Below, piece after piece: positions 1 through 10,606 of a DNA stretch of 10,695 bases. Numbering within the stretch: position 1 is the stretch's first letter; each line of letters opens with the position of its first letter. The stretch is taken from positions 1 to 10,695 of the forward strand of contig QZJY01000057.1 of NCBI GenBank assembly GCA_003597995.1, in the 5' to 3' direction. The notes beneath the pieces are model-generated. The model saw only the letters and a program-made list of their open reading frames with translations. It was not told the origin of the DNA and ran no database searches. The position numbers were made by a program, and so were the translations under genes. The DNA is from Dehalococcoidia bacterium. GTDB taxonomy: Bacteria > Chloroflexota > Dehalococcoidia > Dehalococcoidales > UBA1222.

Positions 1-449
1 GAGGCGGGGGCCTTGCCGCCCCGGGCCTGGATGCGGGCGAATGCCGTTTCCAGGGGCACACGCAACACGTAGTAGCAAGTTCTAAGCCCGCGACCCGCGG
101 CATATAGGTGGTATTGGCGGGTGTGGAGCATCACGCCCTCCCATGCGACCGCCCAATATCCCGCCTTTTTCGCCTGGATACAGGCATGTTCCAGGGCATT
201 AAGGATCTCAATCTTCGAGCCGATACGGTCCACACCCGGAATCTTAACACTCGGCGTGAGATAGTCGCCGATGAGCACAATGCCGAAATTCCTTACCGCC
301 GTGAGGGGTACCGTGTACCCTGCCACTACCGACTCACCCTGCTCGGCCACAGCACGGAGCACGGTCGACTTGCCCGCACCATTCGTTCCAAGAACAGTTA
401 GCAAGACCAGGGGCGATCCATCAAAGGCATTTACGCCGAAGGTAGTCAC
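1..449 (-). CDS. P-loop NTPase/kinase-like protein. The N-terminus is in the window and the C-terminus runs past position 1.
   Basis: Manual minus-strand translation gives (V/M)TTFGVNAFDGSPLVLLTVLGTNGAGKSTVLRAVAEQGESVVAGYTVPLTAVRNFGIVLIGDYLTPSVKIPGVDRIGSKIEILNALEHACIQAKKAGYWAVAWEGVMLHTRQYHLYAAGRGLRTCYYVLRVPLETAFARIQARGGKAPA..., open to position 1. It has a Walker A motif (GTNGAGKST) preceded by a hydrophobic strand, and a hydrophobic strand ending in Asp (GIVLIGD) that resembles Walker B. An in-frame TGA sits at 453-455, followed by GTG at 447-449. The gene is absent from the ORF track, presumably because it has no stop inside the window. Confidence 0.6.
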   Translation of the reverse strand, partial: MTTFGVNAFDGSPLVLLTVLGTNGAGKSTVLRAVAEQGESVVAGYTVPLTAVRNFGIVLIGDYLTPSVKIPGVDRIGSKIEILNALEHACIQAKKAGYWAVAWEGVMLHTRQYHLYAAGRGLRTCYYVLRVPLETAFARIQARGGKAPA

Positions 450-652: not shown

Positions 653-1222
653 TCAGGAGGACCTAATAGCGCGGTCAATCCACGCGTGAATCACAGCGTG
701 CTCAGGATAGCCCGGGGTAATCCAGAATTCCGCAACCTCGTGCAACGGCGCTGCGGGGTGGTCCCGTTGGAACTTGGCGAACGCCCGGGTATACCGGGAG
801 GCAAAGAGTTGTTCCGCATTCCGGCTGCCGCTTTCCCAAAACTCCTTGCGGTACGCCTTACCCCGGCGCACACAGCGGGCTTCGATATGGCGTGCACCGA
901 CCTCTACCGTCTGGAGCATCAGCGCCGCGCGGAGCCCCCGGTACATGCCGAAGGTGGACTGATGCACGAGGCACCGGAAGACGGCACTGTAGATCCGTGT
1001 ACCCTCAATAAGAAGCACGCGGGCCCGCGGATCGGCCCACCGTGTCATCATGTTGCGAAAGGTCGTCACCAACGGCTTCTGAAGAAGGGTATCTTCATCC
1101 GCCGTAATAACCCATTCGGGCTTGATCAGCCCTGCCTGGACCAGTCGTTCGCCGGCCTGGCGGAGCACCGTAGTCTTGCCGGCAGCGTTGCCGCCGGCAA
1201 GCAGGATGGCGCTGTATTGCAC
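653..1222 (-). CDS. P-loop kinase-like protein of 189 aa. It could be a (d)NMP kinase or a modified-nucleotide or DNA kinase; its specificity is unknown.
   Basis: Walker A (AILLAGGNAAGKTTVLRQ) lies at the extreme N-terminus, followed by an acidic strand (VITADED). The size matches small nucleotide kinases. The start is GTG at 1220-1222, immediately after an in-frame stop. Order of motifs and spacing are similar to the truncated P-loop gene at 1..449, suggesting a paralog. Confidence 0.7.
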   Translation of the reverse strand: MQYSAILLAGGNAAGKTTVLRQAGERLVQAGLIKPEWVITADEDTLLQKPLVTTFRNMMTRWADPRARVLLIEGTRIYSAVFRCLVHQSTFGMYRGLRAALMLQTVEVGARHIEARCVRRGKAYRKEFWESGSRNAEQLFASRYTRAFAKFQRDHPAAPLHEVAEFWITPGYPEHAVIHAWIDRAIRSS

Positions 1223-1467: not shown

Positions 1468-3000
1468 CTAGACCCCCTTATCCTCCACAGCGTTCAGATC
1501 GGACACCCCTGCCTTGGCCAACAGCGGGCTGATGTCGATACCCATCGCCTTGCACCGTTCAACGAGCGCGAAGAGGGCTTGGGGCCCAATACCCACGTAC
1601 CGGTCCAAGGCGCTACCGTGCCCGTTGCTGCTGCCGGAATCCATGACGATGATCTTATCCGCCTCAGCCAACGGCGCCGTCGCCGCGGCCATGACCCCGC
1701 TGAATTCCTTGATCGCGGCCGGCACCAGCGTTTGGGCAGCCTCGAGGATCTGGAGGAGCCGGCCGGCTTCATTCAGGGCCTTGTATGCTTCGGCCTTCTT
1801 GAGCGTGCCCTCAGCTTCCGCGAGGAGTTTGGCACGGATGCCGTCGGCTTCGGCCAGCAACTCGGCCCGCTTTGCCGCGGCCCGCCCTTCGCCTTCCGCG
1901 GCCAGGGCTTTACGCTGTGCTTCGGCCTCGATTTCTATCGCCCGCGCCCGGCCTTCCGCCGCGACCTCGGCCGAGCGACGCTGTGCTTCGGCCGGCCTGA
2001 TTACTTCTGCCACGAGTTCCTGCTCGCGACGAGCAGCCGCAGCCTCTGCCACTTCGGTTGCCTTGAGTGTGCGGACGAGTTCGACCTCTTGCTCCTTCTC
2101 CACGACCGCCTTCCGCGCTTCGGCCGTTGCCAACGGACCAGCCTGCTCGGCCCGGGCGCTTTCGGCGTTGGTTTCTGCCCTGTAACGGGCGACGCGTACG
2201 TCCTTTTCTTTCTCCGCCTCTTTGATCAGCGCAATGTTTTCCTGCTCCTTTACGGCACCTTCTTTTTCGGCGGTCGTGGCCTGGATAGTCGCTTCCTTCT
2301 GCGCGTCAGCGGCACCGATTTCGGCGTCCCGCTTGACCTCCGCGGTCCGCTTCAGCCCCAACGCGGCCAAATAGCCTTGCGAGTCGGACAGTTCCTTGAC
2401 CGTAAGGATATCGATCTTGAGCCCCAGGCGGGCCAGGTCGCTCTGTGACTCGTTAATCATACGCTGCTGGAACGCCGCCCGATCGCTGTTGATCTCCTCA
2501 ATGGACAGCGTGCCCAGCATGGAGCGCAGGTGGCCTTCCAGGGCCTCGTATGCCATCTGCCGGATCTCTTCTTGGCTTTTACCGATGAGCCGTTCGACGG
2601 CGTTGATAAGCAGCGTGTCCTCGCTGCCCACCTTGATGTTGGCAACGGCCTTGATCGACAGCGGCACGCCTTCCCGTGTGATAGCTTCTTGGACGGCTAG
2701 ATTCGGGATGGTGATGACCCGTAGGTCTAGCTCGTCCTTACGCTCGAGAAACGGGATAACGAGGGTCGCCCCACCGCGCACGAGGCGGTAGCCGACCGTT
2801 ACGGTCTGCTCCTCCCCGTTCTCATTGCGTGTCACGATCCGGTGCTGCCGCCCCGAGACAACGGCCACAAGATGTGGTGGCACTTTGATGTAGTTGGCCC
2901 GCAGCATCCGAATGATGATGGCGAGCATGAGCACGACAAGTCCAACGATGGCTAGCGTCGTCAACCATGCGGCTATCTGCTGTCCGATATCAAGACCCAC
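1468..3000 (-). CDS. floT: Flotillin of the FloT/YuaG type (SPFH/band-7 domain protein).
   Basis: The 510-aa protein has an N-terminal TM helix (LTTLAIVGLVVLMLAIIIRML) and an SPFH core containing RLVRGGATLVIPFLE, LIGKSQEEIRQMAYEALEGHLRSMLGTLSIEEI and LGLKIDILTVKELSDSQGYLAALGLKRTAEVKRDAEI. By recall these align closely with B. subtilis FloT. A long Ala/Glu/Arg-rich coiled-coil repeat region follows, then a C-terminal tail. The start is GTG at 2998-3000, overlapping the nfeD stop by 11 nt. Confidence 0.85.
   Translation of the reverse strand: MGLDIGQQIAAWLTTLAIVGLVVLMLAIIIRMLRANYIKVPPHLVAVVSGRQHRIVTRNENGEEQTVTVGYRLVRGGATLVIPFLERKDELDLRVITIPNLAVQEAITREGVPLSIKAVANIKVGSEDTLLINAVERLIGKSQEEIRQMAYEALEGHLRSMLGTLSIEEINSDRAAFQQRMINESQSDLARLGLKIDILTVKELSDSQGYLAALGLKRTAEVKRDAEIGAADAQKEATIQATTAEKEGAVKEQENIALIKEAEKEKDVRVARYRAETNAESARAEQAGPLATAEARKAVVEKEQEVELVRTLKATEVAEAAAARREQELVAEVIRPAEAQRRSAEVAAEGRARAIEIEAEAQRKALAAEGEGRAAAKRAELLAEADGIRAKLLAEAEGTLKKAEAYKALNEAGRLLQILEAAQTLVPAAIKEFSGVMAAATAPLAEADKIIVMDSGSSNGHGSALDRYVGIGPQALFALVERCKAMGIDISPLLAKAGVSDLNAVEDKGV
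1780..2350 (+). repeat. Low-complexity GC-rich coding repeats, the flotillin EA-rich coiled-coil region.
   Basis: gcttcggcc-like motifs recur around 1787, 1841, 1917, 1985, 2117 and 2160. On the minus strand they encode AEAE, AEGR and KRAE repeats. The same region produces long spurious plus-strand ORFs (1514..2185 and 1579..2448). Confidence 0.5.
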
Positions 3001-3508
3001 GGTGATTCTCCTTTACGCGGATGGAGGGTTTGACTAGCACCTGGTCTCCTATGAATGTTGTCAAAATTACACGGGTGCCGACGGGGTAGGCCGGCGCGTA
3101 CGGCTCCCCGGCCCGTGCGACGAATGTCTGTTGGTTCCCGCCGACATTGACGACAACTTCGCCGGCTGTTAGCCCCGGCCCCACTTGCACAGTCACGACG
3201 CCGGTGCGGCCGAAGACGTCTGCGGTTTGCACGTGACTCGTCGACTGTTGACGGCTGATCACACGGAGCATCCACACCATCAGCGCACCAAAGCACAGTC
3301 CCGCGAGTACCCCGTACCCGGCGGCGCCAACGATACCGAAGCCGGCGTAGCGAGCTAGCTGCCCGAACCCGCCAAACGCCGCGAGAAAGGCTGCAATTAC
3401 TTTCATGTTGGCTAACTGCGGCCCATCGTGGTCCAAATCCCCGTCGAGATCAAACAGGAACGCGATGAGCAGGCCGGCTAAGCCGACGGCGAGCAGTATG
3501 ACGAACAT
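2990..3508 (-). CDS. nfeD: NfeD-like membrane protein (YuaF/YqiJ type), the usual partner of flotillin.
   Basis: From the internal ATG (aa 51 of track ORF 2990..3658) the protein reads MFVILLAVGLAGLLIAFLFDLDGD..., with hydrophobic TM segments (VIAAFLAAFGGFGQL, GIVGAAGYGVLAGLCFGALMVWML). A C-terminal OB-like beta domain follows (GRTGVVTVQVGPGLTAGEVVVNVGGNQQTFVARAGEPYAPAYPVGTRVILTTFIGDQVLVKP). The ATG lies 5 nt downstream of the upstream gene's stop (3513). The GTG start at 3658 listed in the track would overlap the upstream gene by 146 nt and was disfavoured. Confidence 0.75.
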   Translation of the reverse strand: MFVILLAVGLAGLLIAFLFDLDGDLDHDGPQLANMKVIAAFLAAFGGFGQLARYAGFGIVGAAGYGVLAGLCFGALMVWMLRVISRQQSTSHVQTADVFGRTGVVTVQVGPGLTAGEVVVNVGGNQQTFVARAGEPYAPAYPVGTRVILTTFIGDQVLVKPSIRVKENHRGS

Positions 3509-3512
3509 GCCT

Positions 3513-4457
3513 TCACCCCTTGTGTACCCAATACTTGGGATTGCGGAACCGCTGCGGAATCGTGTCCCAGAGGCGTAGATCCGTGCTGGCTTTGGCCGGG
3601 TCGTAGGTGCGCTTTGCGCGCCCGAACTCCTTGAACCGCACGTATTTCTGGTATTCACATAAGGCTTGTTCGAGATTCTCCAAGGTTAGCGGGGGCCCAA
3701 GAAGCGTGGCGCCGGCTGCTGCTAGCTGGTCGTACTGGCTGTCGCGTAATTCCATCAGTGCCGGCTGCACCTGCGGCAGGCGTATGCGGCGCTCAAGCAA
3801 CAGGTCAAGCCCCCGAATCGCTCCGGGTCCACAGAAGGCCCACTCGTCGAGCCACGAGCTTGGGAGAATGTCGACTTCGGGGTAACAGCAGTCAATCATG
3901 ATCTCAAAGGCGTTAAACCCGGCCCAGCCGGGCACTTGCATGAGCACGCGATGCGCCTGGACGGGGTTGGTGGCATCGGCCAGTTCGTCAAGGACGCGGC
4001 TAACGTGTTCCGCGAGCCATGTCAGATTCGTGATAATCGTGCGTAGCTTGCCCCCGCCGCCCCCGCCGCCGTGACCAGTGATCATATACGCCCCGGTGAA
4101 GATCTTCACGCCTTGGGCCCGGAGCGCCTCCAACCGGTGGAACATCCGTTTGGAGCTCCAGGACTCAGGCGTCAGGTAGCCGCCGAGAGCGTCGTAGGTA
4201 GCCGGCCACCCAAAGGAGCGGAAGGCCGCGACGTTAAAGAGCTGGTTTTCTGGCTTGCCTTGCTCGGGCAGACGGCGAAGAAGTTCGCGCGTCCCCCGAT
4301 CTAGTTCACGGTAAATGTTCGTGAATGCTACGCTGCGCAACACCTGATCCTCGGACCACGGCGGCGGTTCCAGTCGAATGATCCGGCGCACGAACACCGC
4401 ATGTCGCTCAGCGACAAACCGCCAAAACTGTGGAACATGCTCAGGGTGCCAGTCCAT
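3513..4457 (-). CDS. Hypothetical 314-aa protein with a poly-Gly loop (GHGGGGGGGK). Candidate partner enzyme of the adjacent TS-like gene; function unknown.
   Basis: The ORF has an ATG start at 4455-4457, 7 nt after the TS-like gene's TAG stop, and its stop lies 5 nt before the nfeD start. Codon usage and third-position GC match the neighbouring genes. I could assign no family from the sequence alone. The Gly-rich loop does not fit the Walker A pattern GxxxxGK[ST]. Confidence 0.75.
   Translation of the reverse strand: MDWHPEHVPQFWRFVAERHAVFVRRIIRLEPPPWSEDQVLRSVAFTNIYRELDRGTRELLRRLPEQGKPENQLFNVAAFRSFGWPATYDALGGYLTPESWSSKRMFHRLEALRAQGVKIFTGAYMITGHGGGGGGGKLRTIITNLTWLAEHVSRVLDELADATNPVQAHRVLMQVPGWAGFNAFEIMIDCCYPEVDILPSSWLDEWAFCGPGAIRGLDLLLERRIRLPQVQPALMELRDSQYDQLAAAGATLLGPPLTLENLEQALCEYQKYVRFKEFGRAKRTYDPAKASTDLRLWDTIPQRFRNPKYWVHKG
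4051..4068 (+). repeat. Perfect tandem 9-mer (cccccgccg) x2 inside the 314-aa CDS, encoding the Gly7 run.
   Basis: Read directly from the sequence: cccccgccgcccccgccg at 4051-4068. Its reverse complement, ggc ggc ggg ggc ggc ggg ggc, encodes GGGGGGG. The repeat unit is a multiple of three. Confidence 0.8.
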
Positions 4458-4464
4458 GTCGTCC

Positions 4465-5637
4465 CTACGGGCCGTGATATTCAGGCAAGGAAGGCTGCAC
4501 AGCCCCGTCGTGTTTAATGTAGGCGAGTACGACGGCCGGATAATCCGGGAGATAAACGTGGCGCGTTACGTGCCGCCGCGCTGCCCACCGCCACAGGAAT
4601 TCCCATGCGGCCACGGCCCAATCCTGCGCAGCTACACAGTGGAGTTCGTCGACTGCCCGTTGGCATCGCTCAACGTTGTCGCGGGCACTTGTACCGTGTA
4701 AGTGGCCCCATGCCCGTAACATTCGCCGGACGCTCTCCCAATACGGACAATCGACCGGATCGTCGAGCGTTCGGGCCAACAGGGCCGCCCGTGCCAACGC
4801 CGGACCGGGGGCCATGCGGGTAAACGGCACGTGCCGGTACACGTCAAAGGACACGTGAGGATTCTCGACGAGTCGGCGTACGATGGGATCATCCTCGTAC
4901 ACGTGCAGGCTGGAGCTGAAGTGCGAATACTCGCCGACGTCCACCCCAAGCTCACAGGCCAACGCCTCCTGGATGGTCGTAAATTGCACGATGTTTGTAT
5001 ACGAAAGGCCCAGGACCAAATCGTTCGAGCGGTTGAAGGTAGCCGCCCAGAGCTTGCCATCCCGCAGTTGGTACGTGCAGGCTATGTTGCAGGGCATATC
5101 ACGGGTCTCTACCTGCGGGTTATCGAGTTCCGGATCCCTCAGCACGGTGGCAGCGCGGCGGCTGCCGGCGTCCAATCGCAACTGCGCGAGGACGTCTTTA
5201 AGCTGGTCTGCGGTGCCCTGAAACCCCGCACGACGCAGGCGCTTACCGTACGCGCCATGGAAGTCCGGCCCGCCGTCCAAGTACTGGCGGAGTTGTGAGT
5301 TGTACCGGCAAATCCATTCGGCGTCACTCCGGCCGGCCAGGATCCACACGGGTTCCGCTAGCTGGAAAAAGGGGTTTGCCCGCCGGTACGGGATTGTAAG
5401 CACCCGCTGCCGGGGCTGCACCAGCATAGTCAGGGCGTGTAGCATTTCCCTGTGCGTGCGCCCCCGGGAGGTTACGGGGGTGCCATAGAGGCGCATTTGC
5501 TGTACGGCGTCTACAAACCACTCGTTCGCATGCCCGGCCAAGATCAGCCGTTCGGCCTGGTGCTCGCTGGAGGCGCCCCACTTTCCGGCAGCGGTTTCGT
5601 CAGCGTTGGGCGGTGAGCCGTTTCCGTTGCCTGTCAC
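4465..5637 (-). CDS. Thymidylate-synthase-family enzyme, divergent. It may be a canonical thymidylate synthase or a pyrimidine hydroxymethylase; uracil specificity is predicted.
   Basis: The 390-aa protein aligns, by recall, block for block with E. coli ThyA. HGAYGKRLRRAG matches GPVYGKQWRAW. DQLKDVLAQLRLDAGSRRAATVLRDPELD...MPCNIACTYQLRDGKLWAATFNRSNDLVLGLSYTNIVQFTTIQEALACELGVDVGEYSHFSSSLHVYEDD matches [26 protein letters not shown]...[69 protein letters not shown]. The catalytic Cys and the Asn equivalent to E. coli N177 (dUMP specificity) are present. It differs from ThyA in three ways: PCN replaces PCH, there are about 90 extra C-terminal residues, and there is a low-complexity N-terminal extension of about 25 aa. 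The start is GTG at 5635-5637, overlapping the RuvC gene's stop by 38 nt; an alternative TTG start lies about 31 codons downstream. Confidence 0.85.
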   Translation of the reverse strand: MTGNGNGSPPNADETAAGKWGASSEHQAERLILAGHANEWFVDAVQQMRLYGTPVTSRGRTHREMLHALTMLVQPRQRVLTIPYRRANPFFQLAEPVWILAGRSDAEWICRYNSQLRQYLDGGPDFHGAYGKRLRRAGFQGTADQLKDVLAQLRLDAGSRRAATVLRDPELDNPQVETRDMPCNIACTYQLRDGKLWAATFNRSNDLVLGLSYTNIVQFTTIQEALACELGVDVGEYSHFSSSLHVYEDDPIVRRLVENPHVSFDVYRHVPFTRMAPGPALARAALLARTLDDPVDCPYWESVRRMLRAWGHLHGTSARDNVERCQRAVDELHCVAAQDWAVAAWEFLWRWAARRHVTRHVYLPDYPAVVLAYIKHDGAVQPSLPEYHGP

Positions 5638-6271
5638 GGCGCTTCTCCTTTGGAGCCGCTTGCTGTTCCCACGTATAGGCCAGCTTCAGCAACACTTCGC
5701 GTTGCGGTTTCGTGAGGCGGTCGCCTGTACTGCTGCCCGTCAGGACGGTGTGGAAGTCGTGCCCGATCCGGGCGAGGACGAACGCGTCGGCGAGGTTGTG
5801 GTCTTTGTACTCGCGCCCCCACCGTTTGTAAACCTGAAGCAGCACTTCGTCTTTTTGCTGGGCACCGCAATACTTCTTAACGTGCGCCACATTCACGGGA
5901 AGAAAATGCAGCGTTGGCCAGCGCGACTCCCAGAGCACAACCTGGTACACCGCCTGGATGGCCGCCGCTTCACTGGCGGTGTGCGCGTTCGACAGCCAAA
6001 TCTCTGACTCCAGTGCCACCACAACGTGCGCCGCGGAGTCGCGCGCAGACAAGACGATCCGGGCAAGCCGCTCGCGCTGTTCGTACAGGCGCAGGGGGCG
6101 CGGCCCGTCACCCGGGGCGGTCTCGAGCGCGTACTCCTGAACAACCCGTCCGTCCGTTAGGACACAGACGCCTGTGTGCGCAAGTGAGGGGTCAACCCCG
6201 ACGACGGTGACGGCTGGGTAGCTTGGGTCGCCGCTGCTTCCGGGCGGGCTGTTGACCGGCTGCCTGACCAT
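5600..6271 (-). CDS. RuvC-like Holliday-junction resolvase (phage-type).
   Basis: The 223-aa protein carries an N-terminal RuvC-fold signature (VTVVGVDPSLAHTGVCVL) with an Asp, then a conserved Glu (VVALESEIW), then AAIQAVYQVVLWE and a C-terminal acidic motif (DHNLADAFVLARIG). A basic tail (KEKRRDRQRKR) follows. The start is ATG at 6269-6271. Confidence 0.8.
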   Translation of the reverse strand: MVRQPVNSPPGSSGDPSYPAVTVVGVDPSLAHTGVCVLTDGRVVQEYALETAPGDGPRPLRLYEQRERLARIVLSARDSAAHVVVALESEIWLSNAHTASEAAAIQAVYQVVLWESRWPTLHFLPVNVAHVKKYCGAQQKDEVLLQVYKRWGREYKDHNLADAFVLARIGHDFHTVLTGSSTGDRLTKPQREVLLKLAYTWEQQAAPKEKRRDRQRKRLTAQR

Positions 6272-6458
6272 AAGTCACCTCAAGCACTTCGACATCCACA
6301 CGTCGATACGGGATGCCGGGCGTGTTATTGCCGCATTTGTAGCAGAAGAACGCGGTGTCCTGCATCGTGTGCACGAGGCCCACCTTGCAACGTGTGCACA
6401 GATAAATCGTGTCCGGCACGGACATCATGCGATGTTCGGCGTAGTGCGGCATTGTCAT
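6192..6458 (-). CDS. Small Zn-ribbon protein of 88 aa from the internal ATG; function unknown.
   Basis: This is track ORF 6192..6569. The ATG at 6456-6458 forms an ATGA overlap with the Dcd-like gene's TGA stop (6455-6457). The protein reads MTMPHYAEHRMMSVPDTIYLCTRCKVGLVHTMQDTAFFCYKCGNN..., with a CxxC...CxxC motif and a basic C-terminal tail. Its last 80 nt overlap the RuvC N-terminus in another frame. In that overlap the third-position GC is lower for this frame than for the RuvC frame. Confidence 0.5.
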   Translation of the reverse strand: MTMPHYAEHRMMSVPDTIYLCTRCKVGLVHTMQDTAFFCYKCGNNTPGIPYRRVDVEVLEVTYGQAAGQQPARKQRRPKLPSRHRRRG

Positions 6459-6967
6459 GGGCGTGCTAGCTGCGCCGTTGCTGCCCCTTGGTAACGGCCG
6501 TTGTAGGGGTTGCGGGCAAGGCTGGAGAGCCGGTGGACGACCACCTGTGCGAACCGCAGCCCAGGCCAAAGGGGCAGTTGATGATAGCGCGTCTCATTCT
6601 TAATTTCCATCGTCCCAATGCCGTCCCACCCCGGGTCAAACCAAAAGGCCACGGTATGATTCCAGCCTTCACGGGCCCGGCTGGACTTCATCTTCAACTC
6701 CAGCGCATACCCGTTCGGTACGTGGAGCCACTCCCATGTTGACGTAAGGAGGAATGCCCCGGGGTCAACAAGAAACGGTTTCTCCTCACTGTACCCCGCA
6801 AGCGAGTGCGGCTCCCATCCGGGGACACGCCCGGGCTTTTCTACCCAAGCGTCAGTACCAATGCGGATGTCAACCGATGCGGGATTTACAAGCTTCCGGT
6901 CTTCGTCGGGCGCCTTGGGAAACAGCACAGGAAACAGGTCGTCCAGCTCCCGATCACTTAGAGGCAT
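6455..6967 (-). CDS. dcd: dCTP-deaminase-family protein (dUTPase superfamily), possibly a bifunctional dCTP deaminase/dUTPase.
   Basis: The 170-aa protein reads MPLSDRELDDLFP...VNPASVDIRIGTD, which compares with E. coli Dcd MRLCDRDIEAW...VDVRLGN. It also has KMKSSRAREGW (Ser/Arg motif), FDPGWDGIGTMEIKNE (the Dcd-type DPGWxG motif plus the catalytic Glu) and GLRFAQVV. The ATG at 6965-6967 overlaps the Rad50-like gene's TAA stop by 10 nt. Confidence 0.8.
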   Translation of the reverse strand: MPLSDRELDDLFPVLFPKAPDEDRKLVNPASVDIRIGTDAWVEKPGRVPGWEPHSLAGYSEEKPFLVDPGAFLLTSTWEWLHVPNGYALELKMKSSRAREGWNHTVAFWFDPGWDGIGTMEIKNETRYHQLPLWPGLRFAQVVVHRLSSLARNPYNGRYQGAATAQLARP

Positions 6968-8703
6968 TCGACCTCCGCTTCGCCTTGGGAACGTGTCACA
7001 CGCACCACACGGGCACCGGGAAACAGCGCCTTCTGGTCCTGATTGTGTGTAATCACAAATACGGTTACACCGTTGTGGACTTCTTCATGGAGCATGTCAA
7101 TGATAGCGCGCATCCCCGTAGGATCAATACCGCTGAGGCATTCGTCTAAGACTAACAGGTTCACCGGTTCAGGCATGCGCCACCGGGCTAGGGCCCGCAG
7201 CGCCCACGCGATGATGAGATTTACTCGTTCCTTTTCGCCCCGGCTCAGCCCCTCGTACGTCGGGGCACTGGCCCCGCTGATGCGAATGAGGTCTTCATTG
7301 CGGCTGGTGCGAAGCGAGTTAAACTCAACGTGAATTGTGCCGCCAGTCAGCCGGCGACTGACGGCGGCGGCGGTGCGGTTGAGCACCGGCAATGCTTGTG
7401 CAAAGAGATAGGCTTGCAGGCCGTCGCGGCCAAACTCCTTAACCCAAAACGTCGCCCGTTCCAACAGCGTCGTCTTGAGGCTCAGTTCAGTCTTTGCTTC
7501 CCGCAACGCGGCGTCGGCGCGCTCCACCTGTTCGGCGGCGAGTCGGCGATGCGCGGCCTGTTCCTCCTGCTGTCGATGAATCTCCCGCATTTGGTGTTCA
7601 AGGGCATCTTGCCCCTGCGCCGCGGTTTCCAACCGGCGGTAGTCCTGCTCGGCGGCCTGTAGCGCGGCCTGTAGCTTTGCGGCCTGCTCGGTCGTGTGTT
7701 GGGCCTGCTCAGCGGCCTCCGCGCGATCGGCATGCAAGCCCGCCAGCCGACGTTCACTAGCTTTCCGCTGCTTTTTCAACTCCGCAACATTGTCGAACGG
7801 TCGCTTGCAGGTAGGGCAAGCAGTTGAGAAGTCCTGCGCGGCCAGGGAGCGTATTTCCCCGTCCAGACGGTGAACGGTTGCGAGACGTGTATTCGCCTCT
7901 TGCTGGGCCTTGTCGTAGGCGGCCTTACGCACCCGACAAGAGAGTTCGCTCTTAGTCAAGAGGCTCTGCGCGTGTTTCGCTTGCCGTAGTCGTTCCTCAA
8001 GCCGCTCTAGGGCGGCTTCGTAATCGTACGTAGCGGCAGCGCGCACGTGCGCAAGGAAACGCTCCGCCTCGACATGCACCGCCTCCCGTTCCCGTACGAC
8101 CGCCGCGGCGGTGGCCCGCTCCTTCTCGAGGGACGCGGCGTGTTTTGCGGCCAGGGCTGCCGCCTCATTCAATTCGCCTAGCTTGAGCACGGCCTCCAGC
8201 ACGGCCATCTGCCCGGAGAAGCCGGCCTGTGCAAGCGTCGATTCGCCGCTGAGCACGACCGCGGCGCAAAGGGTGGCATAATCGAGACCAAACAGGGCCT
8301 CCGTGTCACGGGCGCGCACGGCCGCATCCCGTGACAGCGGCACCCCCTGCTCTTCAAGTGTAGAAATTACAAGACTCGGGTGACCCTTGGCCGTGCGGGC
8401 GCGACGCAGGCGGACAACGGCCCCCGAATCAAGTTGAATAAGCTCCTCGACGTCGGCGCCGCGTAGGGGGTGGGCGGCGTCGTCGGTAACTGCTCGATTG
8501 CCGTACCGGACCATCTTACCGAAGAGGGCCCACAGAAGCGTTTCGACGATAACGAGCGACTTTCCAGCGCCGTTACTATCCGCGGCGCCGGGGGTGTCGA
8601 GGTTGACGCCCTCGACGAGAACAATTCCGGGGCGGTTAAGTGGAAGGGTGACCGGGCGGCGGATCCGGTTGAAGCTGTGGATCCGATGTTCGAGGAACTT
8701 CAC
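6958..8703 (-). CDS. Rad50/SbcC-like ATPase of the SMC-type ABC family, with a zinc hook.
   Basis: The 581-aa protein has an SbcC-like N-terminus (MKFLEHRIHSFNRIRRPVTLPL...DSNGAGKS, Walker A). A long Ala/Glu/Arg-rich coiled coil follows, with a central CPTC hook (DFSTACPTCKRPFDN). The C-terminus carries the signature motif (LSRGEKERV), Walker B (LLVLDECLSGID) and an H-loop (VFVITHN). The start is GTG at 8701-8703. Confidence 0.85.
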   Translation of the reverse strand: MKFLEHRIHSFNRIRRPVTLPLNRPGIVLVEGVNLDTPGAADSNGAGKSLVIVETLLWALFGKMVRYGNRAVTDDAAHPLRGADVEELIQLDSGAVVRLRRARTAKGHPSLVISTLEEQGVPLSRDAAVRARDTEALFGLDYATLCAAVVLSGESTLAQAGFSGQMAVLEAVLKLGELNEAAALAAKHAASLEKERATAAAVVREREAVHVEAERFLAHVRAAATYDYEAALERLEERLRQAKHAQSLLTKSELSCRVRKAAYDKAQQEANTRLATVHRLDGEIRSLAAQDFSTACPTCKRPFDNVAELKKQRKASERRLAGLHADRAEAAEQAQHTTEQAAKLQAALQAAEQDYRRLETAAQGQDALEHQMREIHRQQEEQAAHRRLAAEQVERADAALREAKTELSLKTTLLERATFWVKEFGRDGLQAYLFAQALPVLNRTAAAVSRRLTGGTIHVEFNSLRTSRNEDLIRISGASAPTYEGLSRGEKERVNLIIAWALRALARWRMPEPVNLLVLDECLSGIDPTGMRAIIDMLHEEVHNGVTVFVITHNQDQKALFPGARVVRVTRSQGEAEVECL

Positions 8704-9172
8704 GCTCGCGAAGTTCCCGTAGTGTGTCGCGCAAGAAGGTATACCGACACACTGCGCACGGCGTCACGTCGGGAAGGTCTAAGCGACACGGTTCCTTGAG
8801 CCCATTGGATGCGACCAGCCGCAAACAGTGTAGTCGTGAGTCAGGCGCGGGGCGCGTCGCAGCAATAAGAATCCTATCCACGAGGGCGTAGGCTTTCTTT
8901 GCTTCCACTGACCACATTAGATTGGACGCCGCCATCTCGTCGTAGCGCGCCTTAGTCAGCGGCGGTTCCTGGTACTCCAGGTGGATAGGGCTGGCGGGCT
9001 TAGGGGGGCAACTGGGGCAACGGACCTGGGTGCGGCGCGTGACCGTAAATCGCTTCCACCAGCCGCTCGGTGCCGCCCGCACCGGCTTTACTGTGCCGCA
9101 CACTTCACACGTCAGGGCATCGCGGTACCAGCGGTCCTTATATTGATGCCACGTTGCACGTGTTGAAGTCAT
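8636..9172 (-). CDS. Hypothetical 178-aa protein with Cys pairs (Zn-ribbon-like) and a Trp-rich N-terminus.
   Basis: The ATG at 9170-9172 is preceded by GGATGG about 4 nt upstream. The protein reads MTSTRATWHQYKDRWYRDALTCEVCGTVKP...VRCPSCPP, with a further CAVC motif. Its C-terminal 68 nt overlap the Rad50-like start in another frame. Third-position GC is moderate, about 60%. Confidence 0.5.
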   Translation of the reverse strand: MTSTRATWHQYKDRWYRDALTCEVCGTVKPVRAAPSGWWKRFTVTRRTQVRCPSCPPKPASPIHLEYQEPPLTKARYDEMAASNLMWSVEAKKAYALVDRILIAATRPAPDSRLHCLRLVASNGLKEPCRLDLPDVTPCAVCRYTFLRDTLRELREREVPRTSDPQLQPDPPPGHPST

Positions 9173-9299: not shown

Positions 9300-9575
9300 T
9301 TACGACGTGGATGCCTGCTCTCCCTGCGCTGTGACAGTCATTGCTCCCCGAAGCGCGAGGTAGGAGATGACGCGCCCCAACGTCCACTCCGGACCCAGCT
9401 GTTCGGCCACGGTGCGCAGGTCGGCCAAGACCGCGACCGGCAGGTCCACCCGCACCGCAGGGTCCAGGAAATCAGCTAGCTCTCCCGGCTCGACATCCAG
9501 ATCCTTCAAGACCGTTTTACAGAAGTGCGGCCAATCTTTTGGAAACTGTGTTGCGACGAGTTTCAGCTTGCCCAT
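9300..9575 (-). CDS. Hypothetical 91-aa protein.
   Basis: This is track ORF 9300..9578, which begins with GTG. The second codon is an ATG at 9573-9575 that overlaps the Mre11-like gene's TGA stop (9575-9577) by 1 nt, a TGATG junction. The protein reads MGKLKLVATQFPKDWPHFCKTVLKDLDVEPGELADFLDPAVRVDLPVAVLADLRTVAEQLGPEW.... I recognised no family. Confidence 0.5.
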   Translation of the reverse strand: MGKLKLVATQFPKDWPHFCKTVLKDLDVEPGELADFLDPAVRVDLPVAVLADLRTVAEQLGPEWTLGRVISYLALRGAMTVTAQGEQASTS

Positions 9576-10606
9576 CACCTGCTGGCCTGCCGGTAAAGGT
9601 ACATGCCCAATTCCACCATCTGCGCCTGCTCATCTGCACTGAGTTCAGGGCATTTTGCCCGAACGCGCTGCCGGAGCAACTCTTCCGAGATCGCCTGCCC
9701 CCCGGCCAACGCTGTCATAATCGATTTCTCTACCTCTGGCACAATCTCTGCGGGCAGCGGCACGGCGTCCAGCCAGCCCAAGCCTTTCGCTGCGTGCTGT
9801 GCTTCTTCCAACTTCTCCTTCGGCACGGCCACGATGCGCAAGTAACCGCCTTCTGGGGGCGCGACGGGAAGCTTCGGCCACTTCGATGTGACGAATACGG
9901 GGGCGGTAAAGGTTACCCGTTCGTACCCGTGGTCGTCAATCAGCACCCCCCCGCGGGAACCGACGTCCCCGAAGTCGAAGTGCATCGGGGCCCCCACGTA
10001 AACCACGCGATAGTTCCGCTGCACAGAGGGCTTGTGCACGTGGTTAAAGAACACCCGGGGGAAGCGGCCCAGCTCACCCAACTTCAGGGGCGCCTCCAGC
10101 CAGTAGTCGGATTCCAGCTCTACCCCTTCGGCGGCGTAGTGACTAAAGACCATGAATTCACTCTCGGCGGCGTCAAAGGCTTTGACCATCACTGCCGGAT
10201 CTGGGTGGAAGGGAATAAAGGTGGCCACGCCACCTAAAATGTCGATCTGTTCGGCCTGTTCGACGAGGGTCGTATTCGGTAGGTGTTTGAGTGGATACAG
10301 CGCGTGCTCTACACCATCCTCGAAATCGTGATTGCCCGGCACGATGATCGTTTCCACTACTCGTTCGGTTAACCGCTCCAGCGCCCGGTAAATGGCATTG
10401 TAGAGCCGGAAGCTAATAAAGTGCCGGCGGTGAAAGATGTCCCCACCCAACACGAGCGTTTCCACATCTCGTCCAACCAGTATGCGCTCCACCTGTCCCA
10501 GCACGTTGAGTAGGTCGTTGACCCGTGTGGGCAGACCATTCACATCTAGCCGGCTGTACGGCCAGTTCCAGTTCGCGTGCAGGTCCCCAATATTGAGGAT
10601 CTTCAA
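9575..10606 (-). CDS. Mre11/SbcD-like calcineurin-type phosphoesterase (DNA repair nuclease).
   Basis: The 343-aa protein has an N-terminus typical of SbcD (MKILNIGDLHANW, motif I GDxH), then GGDIFH (motifs II/III), GNHD (motif IV) and later His residues. The start is TTG at 10604-10606, overlapping the upstream gene's TGA stop (10603-10605). Confidence 0.85.
   Translation of the reverse strand: MKILNIGDLHANWNWPYSRLDVNGLPTRVNDLLNVLGQVERILVGRDVETLVLGGDIFHRRHFISFRLYNAIYRALERLTERVVETIIVPGNHDFEDGVEHALYPLKHLPNTTLVEQAEQIDILGGVATFIPFHPDPAVMVKAFDAAESEFMVFSHYAAEGVELESDYWLEAPLKLGELGRFPRVFFNHVHKPSVQRNYRVVYVGAPMHFDFGDVGSRGGVLIDDHGYERVTFTAPVFVTSKWPKLPVAPPEGGYLRIVAVPKEKLEEAQHAAKGLGWLDAVPLPAEIVPEVEKSIMTALAGGQAISEELLRQRVRAKCPELSADEQAQMVELGMYLYRQASR

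Follow-up and report, generated by a model that had tools for sequence, protein, structure and literature searches.

A predicted phage dUMP hydroxymethylase of the thymidylate synthase superfamily, encoded beside thymidine hypermodification genes on a metagenome contig

Pyrimidine hydroxymethylases related to thymidylate synthase (TS) and the pathways of thymidine hypermodification in phages have both been described, and the type of enzyme considered here is thus already known and poses no new mechanistic question. The hydroxymethylases of deoxyuridine monophosphate (dUMP) from SPO1-like phages and from SP10 are 382-407 amino acids (aa) long (PMC4528723). In the M6/YuA-like phages the TS homologue is regarded as a dUMP hydroxymethyltransferase, and the DNA of M6 contains 5-(2-aminoethyl)uridine derived from 5-hydroxymethyl-deoxyuridine (5-hmdU) (PMC5889632, PMC8989533). 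MilA, the cytidine monophosphate (CMP) 5-hydroxymethylase of Streptomyces rimofaciens, possesses a C-terminal domain of five helices, located away from the active site and needed for solubility, and is devoid of the 27-residue C-terminus of ThyA, whose last residues close over the folate (PMC5175136). The subject of the present analysis is a TS-like gene at 4465..5637 (minus strand, stop codon included) of the metagenome contig QZJY01000057.1; the window is this entire contig of 10,695 bp. Through analysis of the open reading frame (ORF), the PF00303 and PHROG 5131 matches, the BLASTP similarity to SPO1 gp29 and an AlphaFold2 (AF2) model, the gene is predicted, with a probability of roughly 85%, to encode a phage dUMP hydroxymethylase of the TS superfamily, making 5-hydroxymethyl-dUMP (5-hmdUMP) and not deoxythymidine monophosphate (dTMP). 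A preliminary description of the locus had raised the same product as a possibility. Support for it comes from the residue code of the active site, from the resemblance to SPO1 gp29 in sequence and to MilA in fold, and from the linkage to 5-hmdU DNA kinase genes.

The residues that direct the chemistry of these enzymes have been characterized previously. The position of Leu143 in Escherichia coli TS is occupied by Leu in methylating enzymes and by Asp or Glu in hydroxymethylases, where the acidic residue activates the water added to the exocyclic methylene (PMC6400193, PMC13326640); the D145N substitution abolishes the activity of the T4 hydroxymethylase of deoxycytidine monophosphate (dCMP) (PMC6400193). 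Asn or Asp at the N177 position sets the specificity for uracil or cytosine, respectively, and D169N marks the 5-hydroxy-dCMP synthases (PMC13326640). The ribose-preferring MilA carries Ala176 and Lys133, in contrast to the Ser and Arg of the deoxyribose enzymes (PMC5175136).

All of these positions can be read in the window protein. The motif D180-M-P-C183-N184 (5086..5100, minus strand; codons GAT ATG CCC TGC AAC) holds Asp180 at the Leu143 position, the nucleophile Cys183, aligned with C146 of ThyA, and Asn184, aligned with H147. Asp180, the published determinant three residues before the Cys, had gone unnoticed in the preliminary description. The following segment, R203-S204-N-D206 through N215 (4993..5028, minus strand), corresponds to E. 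coli R166, S167, D169 and N177; it contains the phosphate- and sugar-binding residues, the folate-binding Asp and the uracil-specifying Asn. The last of these, N215 (codon at 4993..4995), aligns with N177, and its presence had been recognized correctly from the outset. The automatic alignment set Asp179 of T4 one column off Asn215; the T4 row at this place is an alignment shift and not evidence. Glu95, Tyr130, His245 and Tyr247 are also found, as are the deoxyribose determinants Ser204 (E. coli S167 position) and Arg160 (MilA Lys133 position). Trp80 of E. coli aligns with a gap, and the Trp83 position is Tyr in the window protein and Tyr or Phe in the homologues. Read as a code, Asp180 predicts hydroxymethylation, Asn215 uracil as the base, Asp206 an enzyme other than a 5-hydroxylase, and Ser204 with Arg160 deoxyribose as the sugar.

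The code is conserved throughout the group. In a table of 75 database homologues, Asp at L143, the catalytic Cys, Asn at H147 and Asp at D169 were each found in 75/75 sequences, and Asn at N177 in 74/75. The D, C and N of the motif are also present in SPO1 gp29 and phage Lydia. The combination of a D-x-[PA]-C-N motif with Asn at N177 and Asp at D169 thus occurs in nearly all homologues examined. A regular expression for the same combination, a crude tool that overlooks fragments as well as proteins in which a Cys occurs earlier, recovered at least 107 of 142 further cluster representatives.

The preliminary description drew attention to PCN in place of the PCH of ThyA and considered it a difference that alters the chemistry. 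The motif itself is confirmed (P182-C183-N184, with the C-N pair in 75/75 homologues), but the role assigned to it is not, as the Asn is not a known determinant: a passage of PMC7962005 cites His147 substitutions in E. coli TS that lower the activity and leave Km unchanged. PCN was therefore rejected as the cause of altered chemistry and treated as a clade marker, which in the alignments travels with Asp at L143 and is common to SPO1 gp29 and the whole homologue group.

The TS fold of the 390-aa product, stated in the preliminary description, is borne out by matches to Pfam PF00303 (E 4.7e-18) and to PHROG 5131 (E 6.9e-72, residues 36-356). In sequence, every ThyA is more distant from the protein than are SPO1 gp29 and MilA. 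Comparison with SPO1 gp29 (YP_002300412), annotated in its record as dUMP hydroxymethylase and cited in papers as the known enzyme, gave 162 bits, an E-value of 1e-50 and 38% identity over 224 residues in BLASTP. Among the PDB chains MilA reached 93 bits, whereas ThyA scored about 30-45 bits. All seven NCBIfam ThyA equivalog models remained far below their cut-offs, the best with 71.2 versus 174.55 bits and the others with 30-49 versus 108-427 bits, e.g. 49 versus 327. The best matches from cultured phages are those of the M6/YuA-like Pseudomonas siphoviruses, which are about 30% identical over an aligned 83-84% of its length. The group is large: 431 cluster representatives match the TS-like protein at E <= 1e-30, and the database labels of the relatives are mostly "thymidylate synthase".

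Some of the homologues (P0012, P0030, P0072 and P0073) have a length of 534-683 aa and contain domains of inteins, of HNH endonucleases or of both. For P0012 and P0030 the alignment with the query is interrupted right after the PCN motif (about residue 186), which suggests insertion of inteins at the active site.

The long C-terminus was the second feature to which the preliminary description ascribed altered chemistry, through a changed closure of the active site. The additional length is real: 143 residues follow H245-x-Y247, about 88 more than the 55 that come after H207-x-Y209 in the E. coli enzyme ThyA. In the AF2 model, built on the family alignment (mean predicted local distance difference test score, pLDDT, 88; predicted template modelling score, pTM, 0.87), these residues are predicted to belong to a separate helical domain and not to a tail appended to the ThyA C-terminus. 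The domain comprises residues ~255-390 (4468..4875, minus strand), replaces the C-terminal strands and the closing tail of ThyA, and has modelled helices at 280-289, 298-313, 318-332, 338-354 and 368-374. Its family-conserved motifs in an alignment of 17 homologues are C297-P-Y-W300, D339-W340 and H376 (CPYW, DW and HD). In a Foldseek search of the PDB, seven MilA chains rank first, the best of them aligned over 333 columns, among which is the C-terminal domain, with a template modelling (TM) score of 0.83 on the target; for the ThyA chains the alignment is confined to the core (about 225-285 columns). No dUMP hydroxymethylase was present among the 50 best matches in the PDB copy searched, and the BFVD matches, carrying only generic "thymidylate synthase" names, were uninformative. 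The roughly 90 extra residues are a normal feature of this enzyme branch. By analogy with MilA, in which the helical domain is far from the active site, the mechanistically relevant feature would be the missing ThyA closing tail and not the added residues.

The start of the gene, left undecided in the preliminary description, is settled on sequence grounds for the GTG at 5637, located 38 nucleotides (nt) inside the RuvC-like ORF (5600..6271). A putative Shine-Dalgarno sequence, AAGGAG (5645..5650, minus strand), was read within the 3' end of the RuvC-like gene, separated from the GTG by a spacer of 7 nt, and no other in-frame start was found before codon 33. The TTG at codon 33 was rejected; it has no Shine-Dalgarno site of the AAGGAG kind and also leaves a shorter stretch before the conserved GHAN block than in any of the 17 aligned homologues. 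The source gene call (P0001, 4465..5427, minus strand), a protein of 320 aa starting from Met71, was rejected as too short, as it drops 70 residues and would delete a part of the conserved core, and with it Arg58, which corresponds to R21 of E. coli. The N-terminal extension noticed earlier is also present: residues 1-30 (5548..5637, minus strand, of which 38 nt lie within the RuvC-like gene) are unconserved among the 17 aligned homologues (36-55% identity) and predicted to be disordered, with pLDDT below 50 at residues 1-8 and 10-23.

Two genes of thymidine hypermodification are located in the window. At the left contig end, by which it is truncated, lies a gene for a 5-hmdU DNA kinase (3..449, minus strand; likely GTG start at 449). 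It was identified through PF18748 (34.2 bits versus a cut-off of 27, E 2.4e-8), a P-loop GTNGAGKST and BLASTP similarity to the PF18748 gene of the related contig L002 (E 6e-27). The PF18748 family phosphorylates 5-hmdU within DNA (PMC8989533), and the kinase is a strong contextual support for the hydroxymethylase. It is worth noting that this gene was missing from the ORF list. Only 7 nt past the TS-like stop codon, a PF18723 protein is encoded (HMUDK_hel, aGPT-Pplase clade 1 type; 3513..4457, minus strand; Pfam E 5.2e-50). This gene class has been found only in thymidine-hypermodifying phages (Lee et al.). The protein is 38% identical to the product of the syntenic L002 gene, and tblastn matches were obtained in M6/YuA-like phages, in which the homologues adjoin the TS-like gene, and in ViI-like phages, one homologue of which is annotated as Pplase1 (aGPT-Pplase clade 1).

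The linkage extends to the relatives. All five long contigs with close homologues (34-51% identity) carry PF18723, PF18724 or PF18748 within 10 kb, and in three of the five the genes are arranged as in the window (SbcD, SbcC, RuvC, TS-like). Among IMG/VR loci with relatives, scored with hidden Markov models (HMMs) built in this analysis, 15 of 20 have such a hypermodification gene in the fetched flank; for several of the other five the flanking DNA is short. In the 45 kb examined of the SPO1 region, as expected, neither a 5-hmdU DNA kinase nor a PF18723 gene was found. In one IMG/VR locus a single ORF (L013, 7472..9430) is recognized by the kinase HMM as well as by the PF18723-type HMM, and resembles the fusion reported for SP10 gp186. 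The Pfam name "5-hmdU DNA kinase, helical domain" probably stems from such a fusion.

The proposed mechanism is derived from the literature on T4 and TS (PMC6400193). Cys183 would attack dUMP at C6, C5 would receive the one-carbon unit from 5,10-methylene-tetrahydrofolate, and elimination of the folate would leave an exocyclic methylene intermediate. Asp180 would position and activate a water molecule, which adds to the exocyclic methylene in place of a hydride, because Asp180 replaces the water-excluding Leu143 and the closing tail is absent, Trp80 also being lacking. The predicted products are 5-hmdUMP and tetrahydrofolate (THF), and a THF-releasing enzyme would not need dihydrofolate reductase. 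Consistent with this, neither the window nor any of the five long related contigs showed a dihydrofolate reductase gene. The later steps are modelled on the thymidine-hypermodification pathway papers. A dCTP deaminase-like protein (dCTP, deoxycytidine triphosphate) would help to provide deoxyuridine nucleotides; kinases would carry 5-hmdUMP to the triphosphate, to be built into DNA by the phage polymerase; finally, the 5-hmdU DNA kinase would phosphorylate the base in DNA for a transferase, and the PF18723 protein would also act, so that a hypermodified thymidine results.

Several points weigh against this assignment. The nearest enzyme annotated and cited as characterised, SPO1 gp29, is just 38% identical over the core. 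The Ser/Thr located two residues before the catalytic Tyr, one part of the signature of the T4 dCMP hydroxymethylase, is missing from the window protein, which has Gly128-Ala129-Tyr130. This position is Ala in SPO1 gp29 and Gly in phage Lydia; because these proteins are also without the residue, that part of the signature seems specific to cytosine enzymes and may not define dUMP hydroxymethylases. None of the ORFs of the 10.7-kb window was recognized as a clade 2 amino acid:DNA transferase (ADDT, PF18724), although PF18724 is present in four of the five related contigs examined (L002, L003, L005 and L006); the gene may lie beyond the contig, which ends inside the kinase gene. Moreover, the final base could be either plain 5-hmdU or a hypermodified one.

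Of the alternatives, the one that survives best, with a small chance of being right, is that the enzyme makes another C5-modified pyrimidine nucleotide: 5-hydroxymethyl-dCMP, 5-hydroxy-dCMP, 5-methyl-dCMP, a MilA-like ribonucleotide or an undescribed product. The nearby dCTP deaminase-like gene speaks for this alternative, yet cytosine enzymes have Asp at the N177 position, which is Asn here and in 74/75 homologues. Phage TS homologues with unexpected chemistry do exist, for example in 5-hydroxy-dCMP synthesis (PMC13326640), but those synthases have the D169N change and Asp206 is retained in the window protein. The closest solved structure is that of a CMP hydroxymethylase; the ribose-preferring enzymes, however, have Ala and Lys instead of Ser204 and Arg160. 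In addition, the neighbouring kinase belongs to a family acting on 5-hmdU (PMC8989533).

It is quite improbable that the gene encodes a divergent ordinary thymidylate synthase, supplying dTMP and dihydrofolate for phage DNA synthesis. The name "thymidylate synthase" in many database records of relatives is set against NCBIfam equivalog scores that are all far under the cut-offs and against a sequence more similar to those of SPO1 gp29 and MilA than to that of any ThyA. Most of the catalytic residues and the TS fold are indeed kept (Cys183, Glu95, Tyr130, Arg203, Asp206, Asn215, His245 and Tyr247), but Leu143 is replaced by Asp, Trp80 faces a gap and the folate-sealing tail of ThyA is absent (PMC6400193). 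The linked 5-hmdU DNA kinase genes, furthermore, need 5-hmdU in the DNA. An inactive or structural TS-like protein, or a decayed gene, is hardly credible: the metagenomic origin of the contig, the unusual overlapping GTG start and the truncated source gene call might point to decay, but the ORF is intact, all catalytic residues are invariant in ~50%-identical homologues, the Shine-Dalgarno sequence is strong, the model is confident and 431 cluster representatives match at E <= 1e-30.

The window, a contig from JGI, has a G+C content of about 61-63% throughout, and megablast of its entire length against 50,697 phage records gave no match; the phage is known only from the metagenome. The genes are closely spaced and nearly all encoded by the minus strand; their transcriptional order is: an SbcD-like gene (9575..10606), two small ORFs, an SbcC-like gene (6958..8703), the dCTP deaminase-like gene (6455..6967), a small zinc-ribbon ORF, the RuvC-like gene, the TS-like gene, the PF18723 gene, an NfeD-like ORF and a flotillin/SPFH gene (1468..~3508), a 58-aa ORF, a P-loop ORF (653..1222), a 74-aa ORF and the left-end kinase gene. 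Two Cys-rich ORFs, 6192..6569 and 8636..9172 (both minus strand), overlap their neighbours by 68-115 nt as listed; the true starts probably lie downstream of those given. The first of them has a weak match (E 8e-5) to a small ORF at the equivalent place in the related locus L004.

The RuvC-like resolvase gene (5600..6271, minus strand), whose last 38 nt overlap the TS-like start, matches PHROG 159 (E 4.6e-22) and is 48% identical to the syntenic L002 gene. The dCTP deaminase-like protein of dUTPase fold (6455..6967, minus strand) was identified through PF22769 (E 1.6e-18) and PHROG 1663, and scores 87 bits with TIGR02274 against a cut-off of 92.8; it is a likely supplier of deoxyuridine nucleotides. 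Its gene sits where related clusters carry other genes. In L001-L004 and L006 the TS-like gene is followed by that of an HD phosphohydrolase, which is absent from the window.

The P-loop NTPase (GGNAAGKT; 653..1222, minus strand) is unclassified, with no Pfam, PHROG or NCBIfam match. BLASTP revealed relatives in the neighbourhoods of L003, L002 and L006 (E 2e-27 to 7e-13); their genes adjoin that of the 5-hmdU DNA kinase in L002 and L003, and in L006 the adjoining gene is the TS-like one. The ORF was rejected as the 5-hmdU DNA kinase itself; it has no similarity to the L002 PF18748 protein, and only the Walker A motif is common to it and the kinase fragment of the window. It may represent a second kinase, e.g. 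for 5-hmdUMP. Between the PF18723 and P-loop genes, an NfeD-like membrane ORF (likely ATG start at 3508) and a 510-aa SPFH/flotillin gene occupy 1468..3508 (minus strand). No homologue of either was found in the six related loci compared (L001-L006), and the pair looks like an insertion particular to this phage.

The accessory enzymes of related clusters comprise an inositol-1-phosphate synthase-like protein (L003, 13173..14258), a PALP-family, pyridoxal phosphate-dependent enzyme (L006, 11727..12563), a glutamine amidotransferase (L005, 18584..19231) and a methyltransferase (L002, 18320..18943). This variety hints at several different thymidine modifications within the phage group. A new end-product base, and a separate function of the PF18723 protein, come into consideration because the core hypermodification genes are accompanied by the unclassified P-loop protein and the NfeD-like/flotillin pair, with no PF18724 in the window and varied accessory enzymes in the relatives. 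That the enzyme feeds a thymidine hypermodification not yet described is, on this evidence, a tentative idea and rather unlikely.

The phage very probably replaces thymidine with 5-hmdU or a derivative of it. Replacement of thymidine affects the restriction resistance, the sequencing behaviour and the annotation of phage DNA. The D-x-[PA]-C-N motif, together with Asn at N177 and Asp at D169, could serve as a simple rule for re-annotating the group labelled "thymidylate synthase". The residual novelty lies in the end product of the cluster in this lineage and in the unclassified, conserved P-loop protein, and not in the enzyme.

Among known systems, SPO1 gp29, a member of the "TS4" group (PMC4528723), shares with the window protein the DRPCN (D-x-P-C-N) and NRSND motifs, Asn at the N177 position, a similar length (383 versus 390 aa) and a long C-terminal region replacing the ThyA tail. 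The C-terminal domains barely align, however, and gp29 lacks the CPYW and DW motifs. SPO1 also has plain 5-hmdU in its DNA and neither a 5-hmdU DNA kinase nor a PF18723 gene in the 45 kb, whereas the window contig has both. The M6/YuA-like enzymes (phage Lydia PaL_00004, PHROG 5131) resemble the window protein in the motif, DLPCN in Lydia, and in the C-terminal domain, which lies within the alignment. These phages likewise have PF18723-type genes beside the TS-like gene and a 5-hmdU-derived, hypermodified thymidine. In contrast to the window, they encode an HD phosphohydrolase right after the gene and a dCMP deaminase nearby; the window has neither, but a dCTP deaminase-like gene.

MilA (PDB 5jnh, 5b6d, 5jp9) is the best match of solved structure (sequence E 1.8e-25, TM 0.83), and has in common with the window protein the helical C-terminal domain and Asp at the L143 position (PMC13326640). 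It differs in its CMP substrate, in Asp at N177, Ala176 and Lys133, which correspond to Asn215, Ser204 and Arg160, and in having C-T where the window protein has P-C-N. With the T4 dCMP hydroxymethylase gp42 (PDB 1B5E; ternary complex in PMC6400193) the protein shares the proposed addition of water to the exocyclic methylene, an Asp at position -3 relative to the catalytic Cys and the lack of a ThyA-type closing tail. Nevertheless, the identity is 19%, and gp42, of 246 aa and without a C-terminal domain, is specific for cytosine via Asp179 and has Ser94-x-Tyr96 instead of Gly128-x-Tyr130.

E. coli ThyA (PF00303) has the same fold and the equivalent Cys, Glu58, Tyr94, Arg166, Asp169, Asn177, His207 and Tyr209. 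The differences relate to the low identity (23%), the changes of Leu143 to Asp, His147 to Asn and Trp83 to Tyr, the gap at Trp80, and the helical domain in place of the C-terminal strands and tail. The 5-hydroxy-dCMP synthases of the RB69 gp48 type have Asn at D169, in contrast to Asp206 of the window protein and the Asp of 75/75 homologues (PMC13326640). Judged by its sequence, the TS-like protein thus has the characters predicted for a dUMP hydroxymethylase and departs from those of ThyA, of the cytosine hydroxymethylases and of the 5-hydroxy-dCMP synthases.

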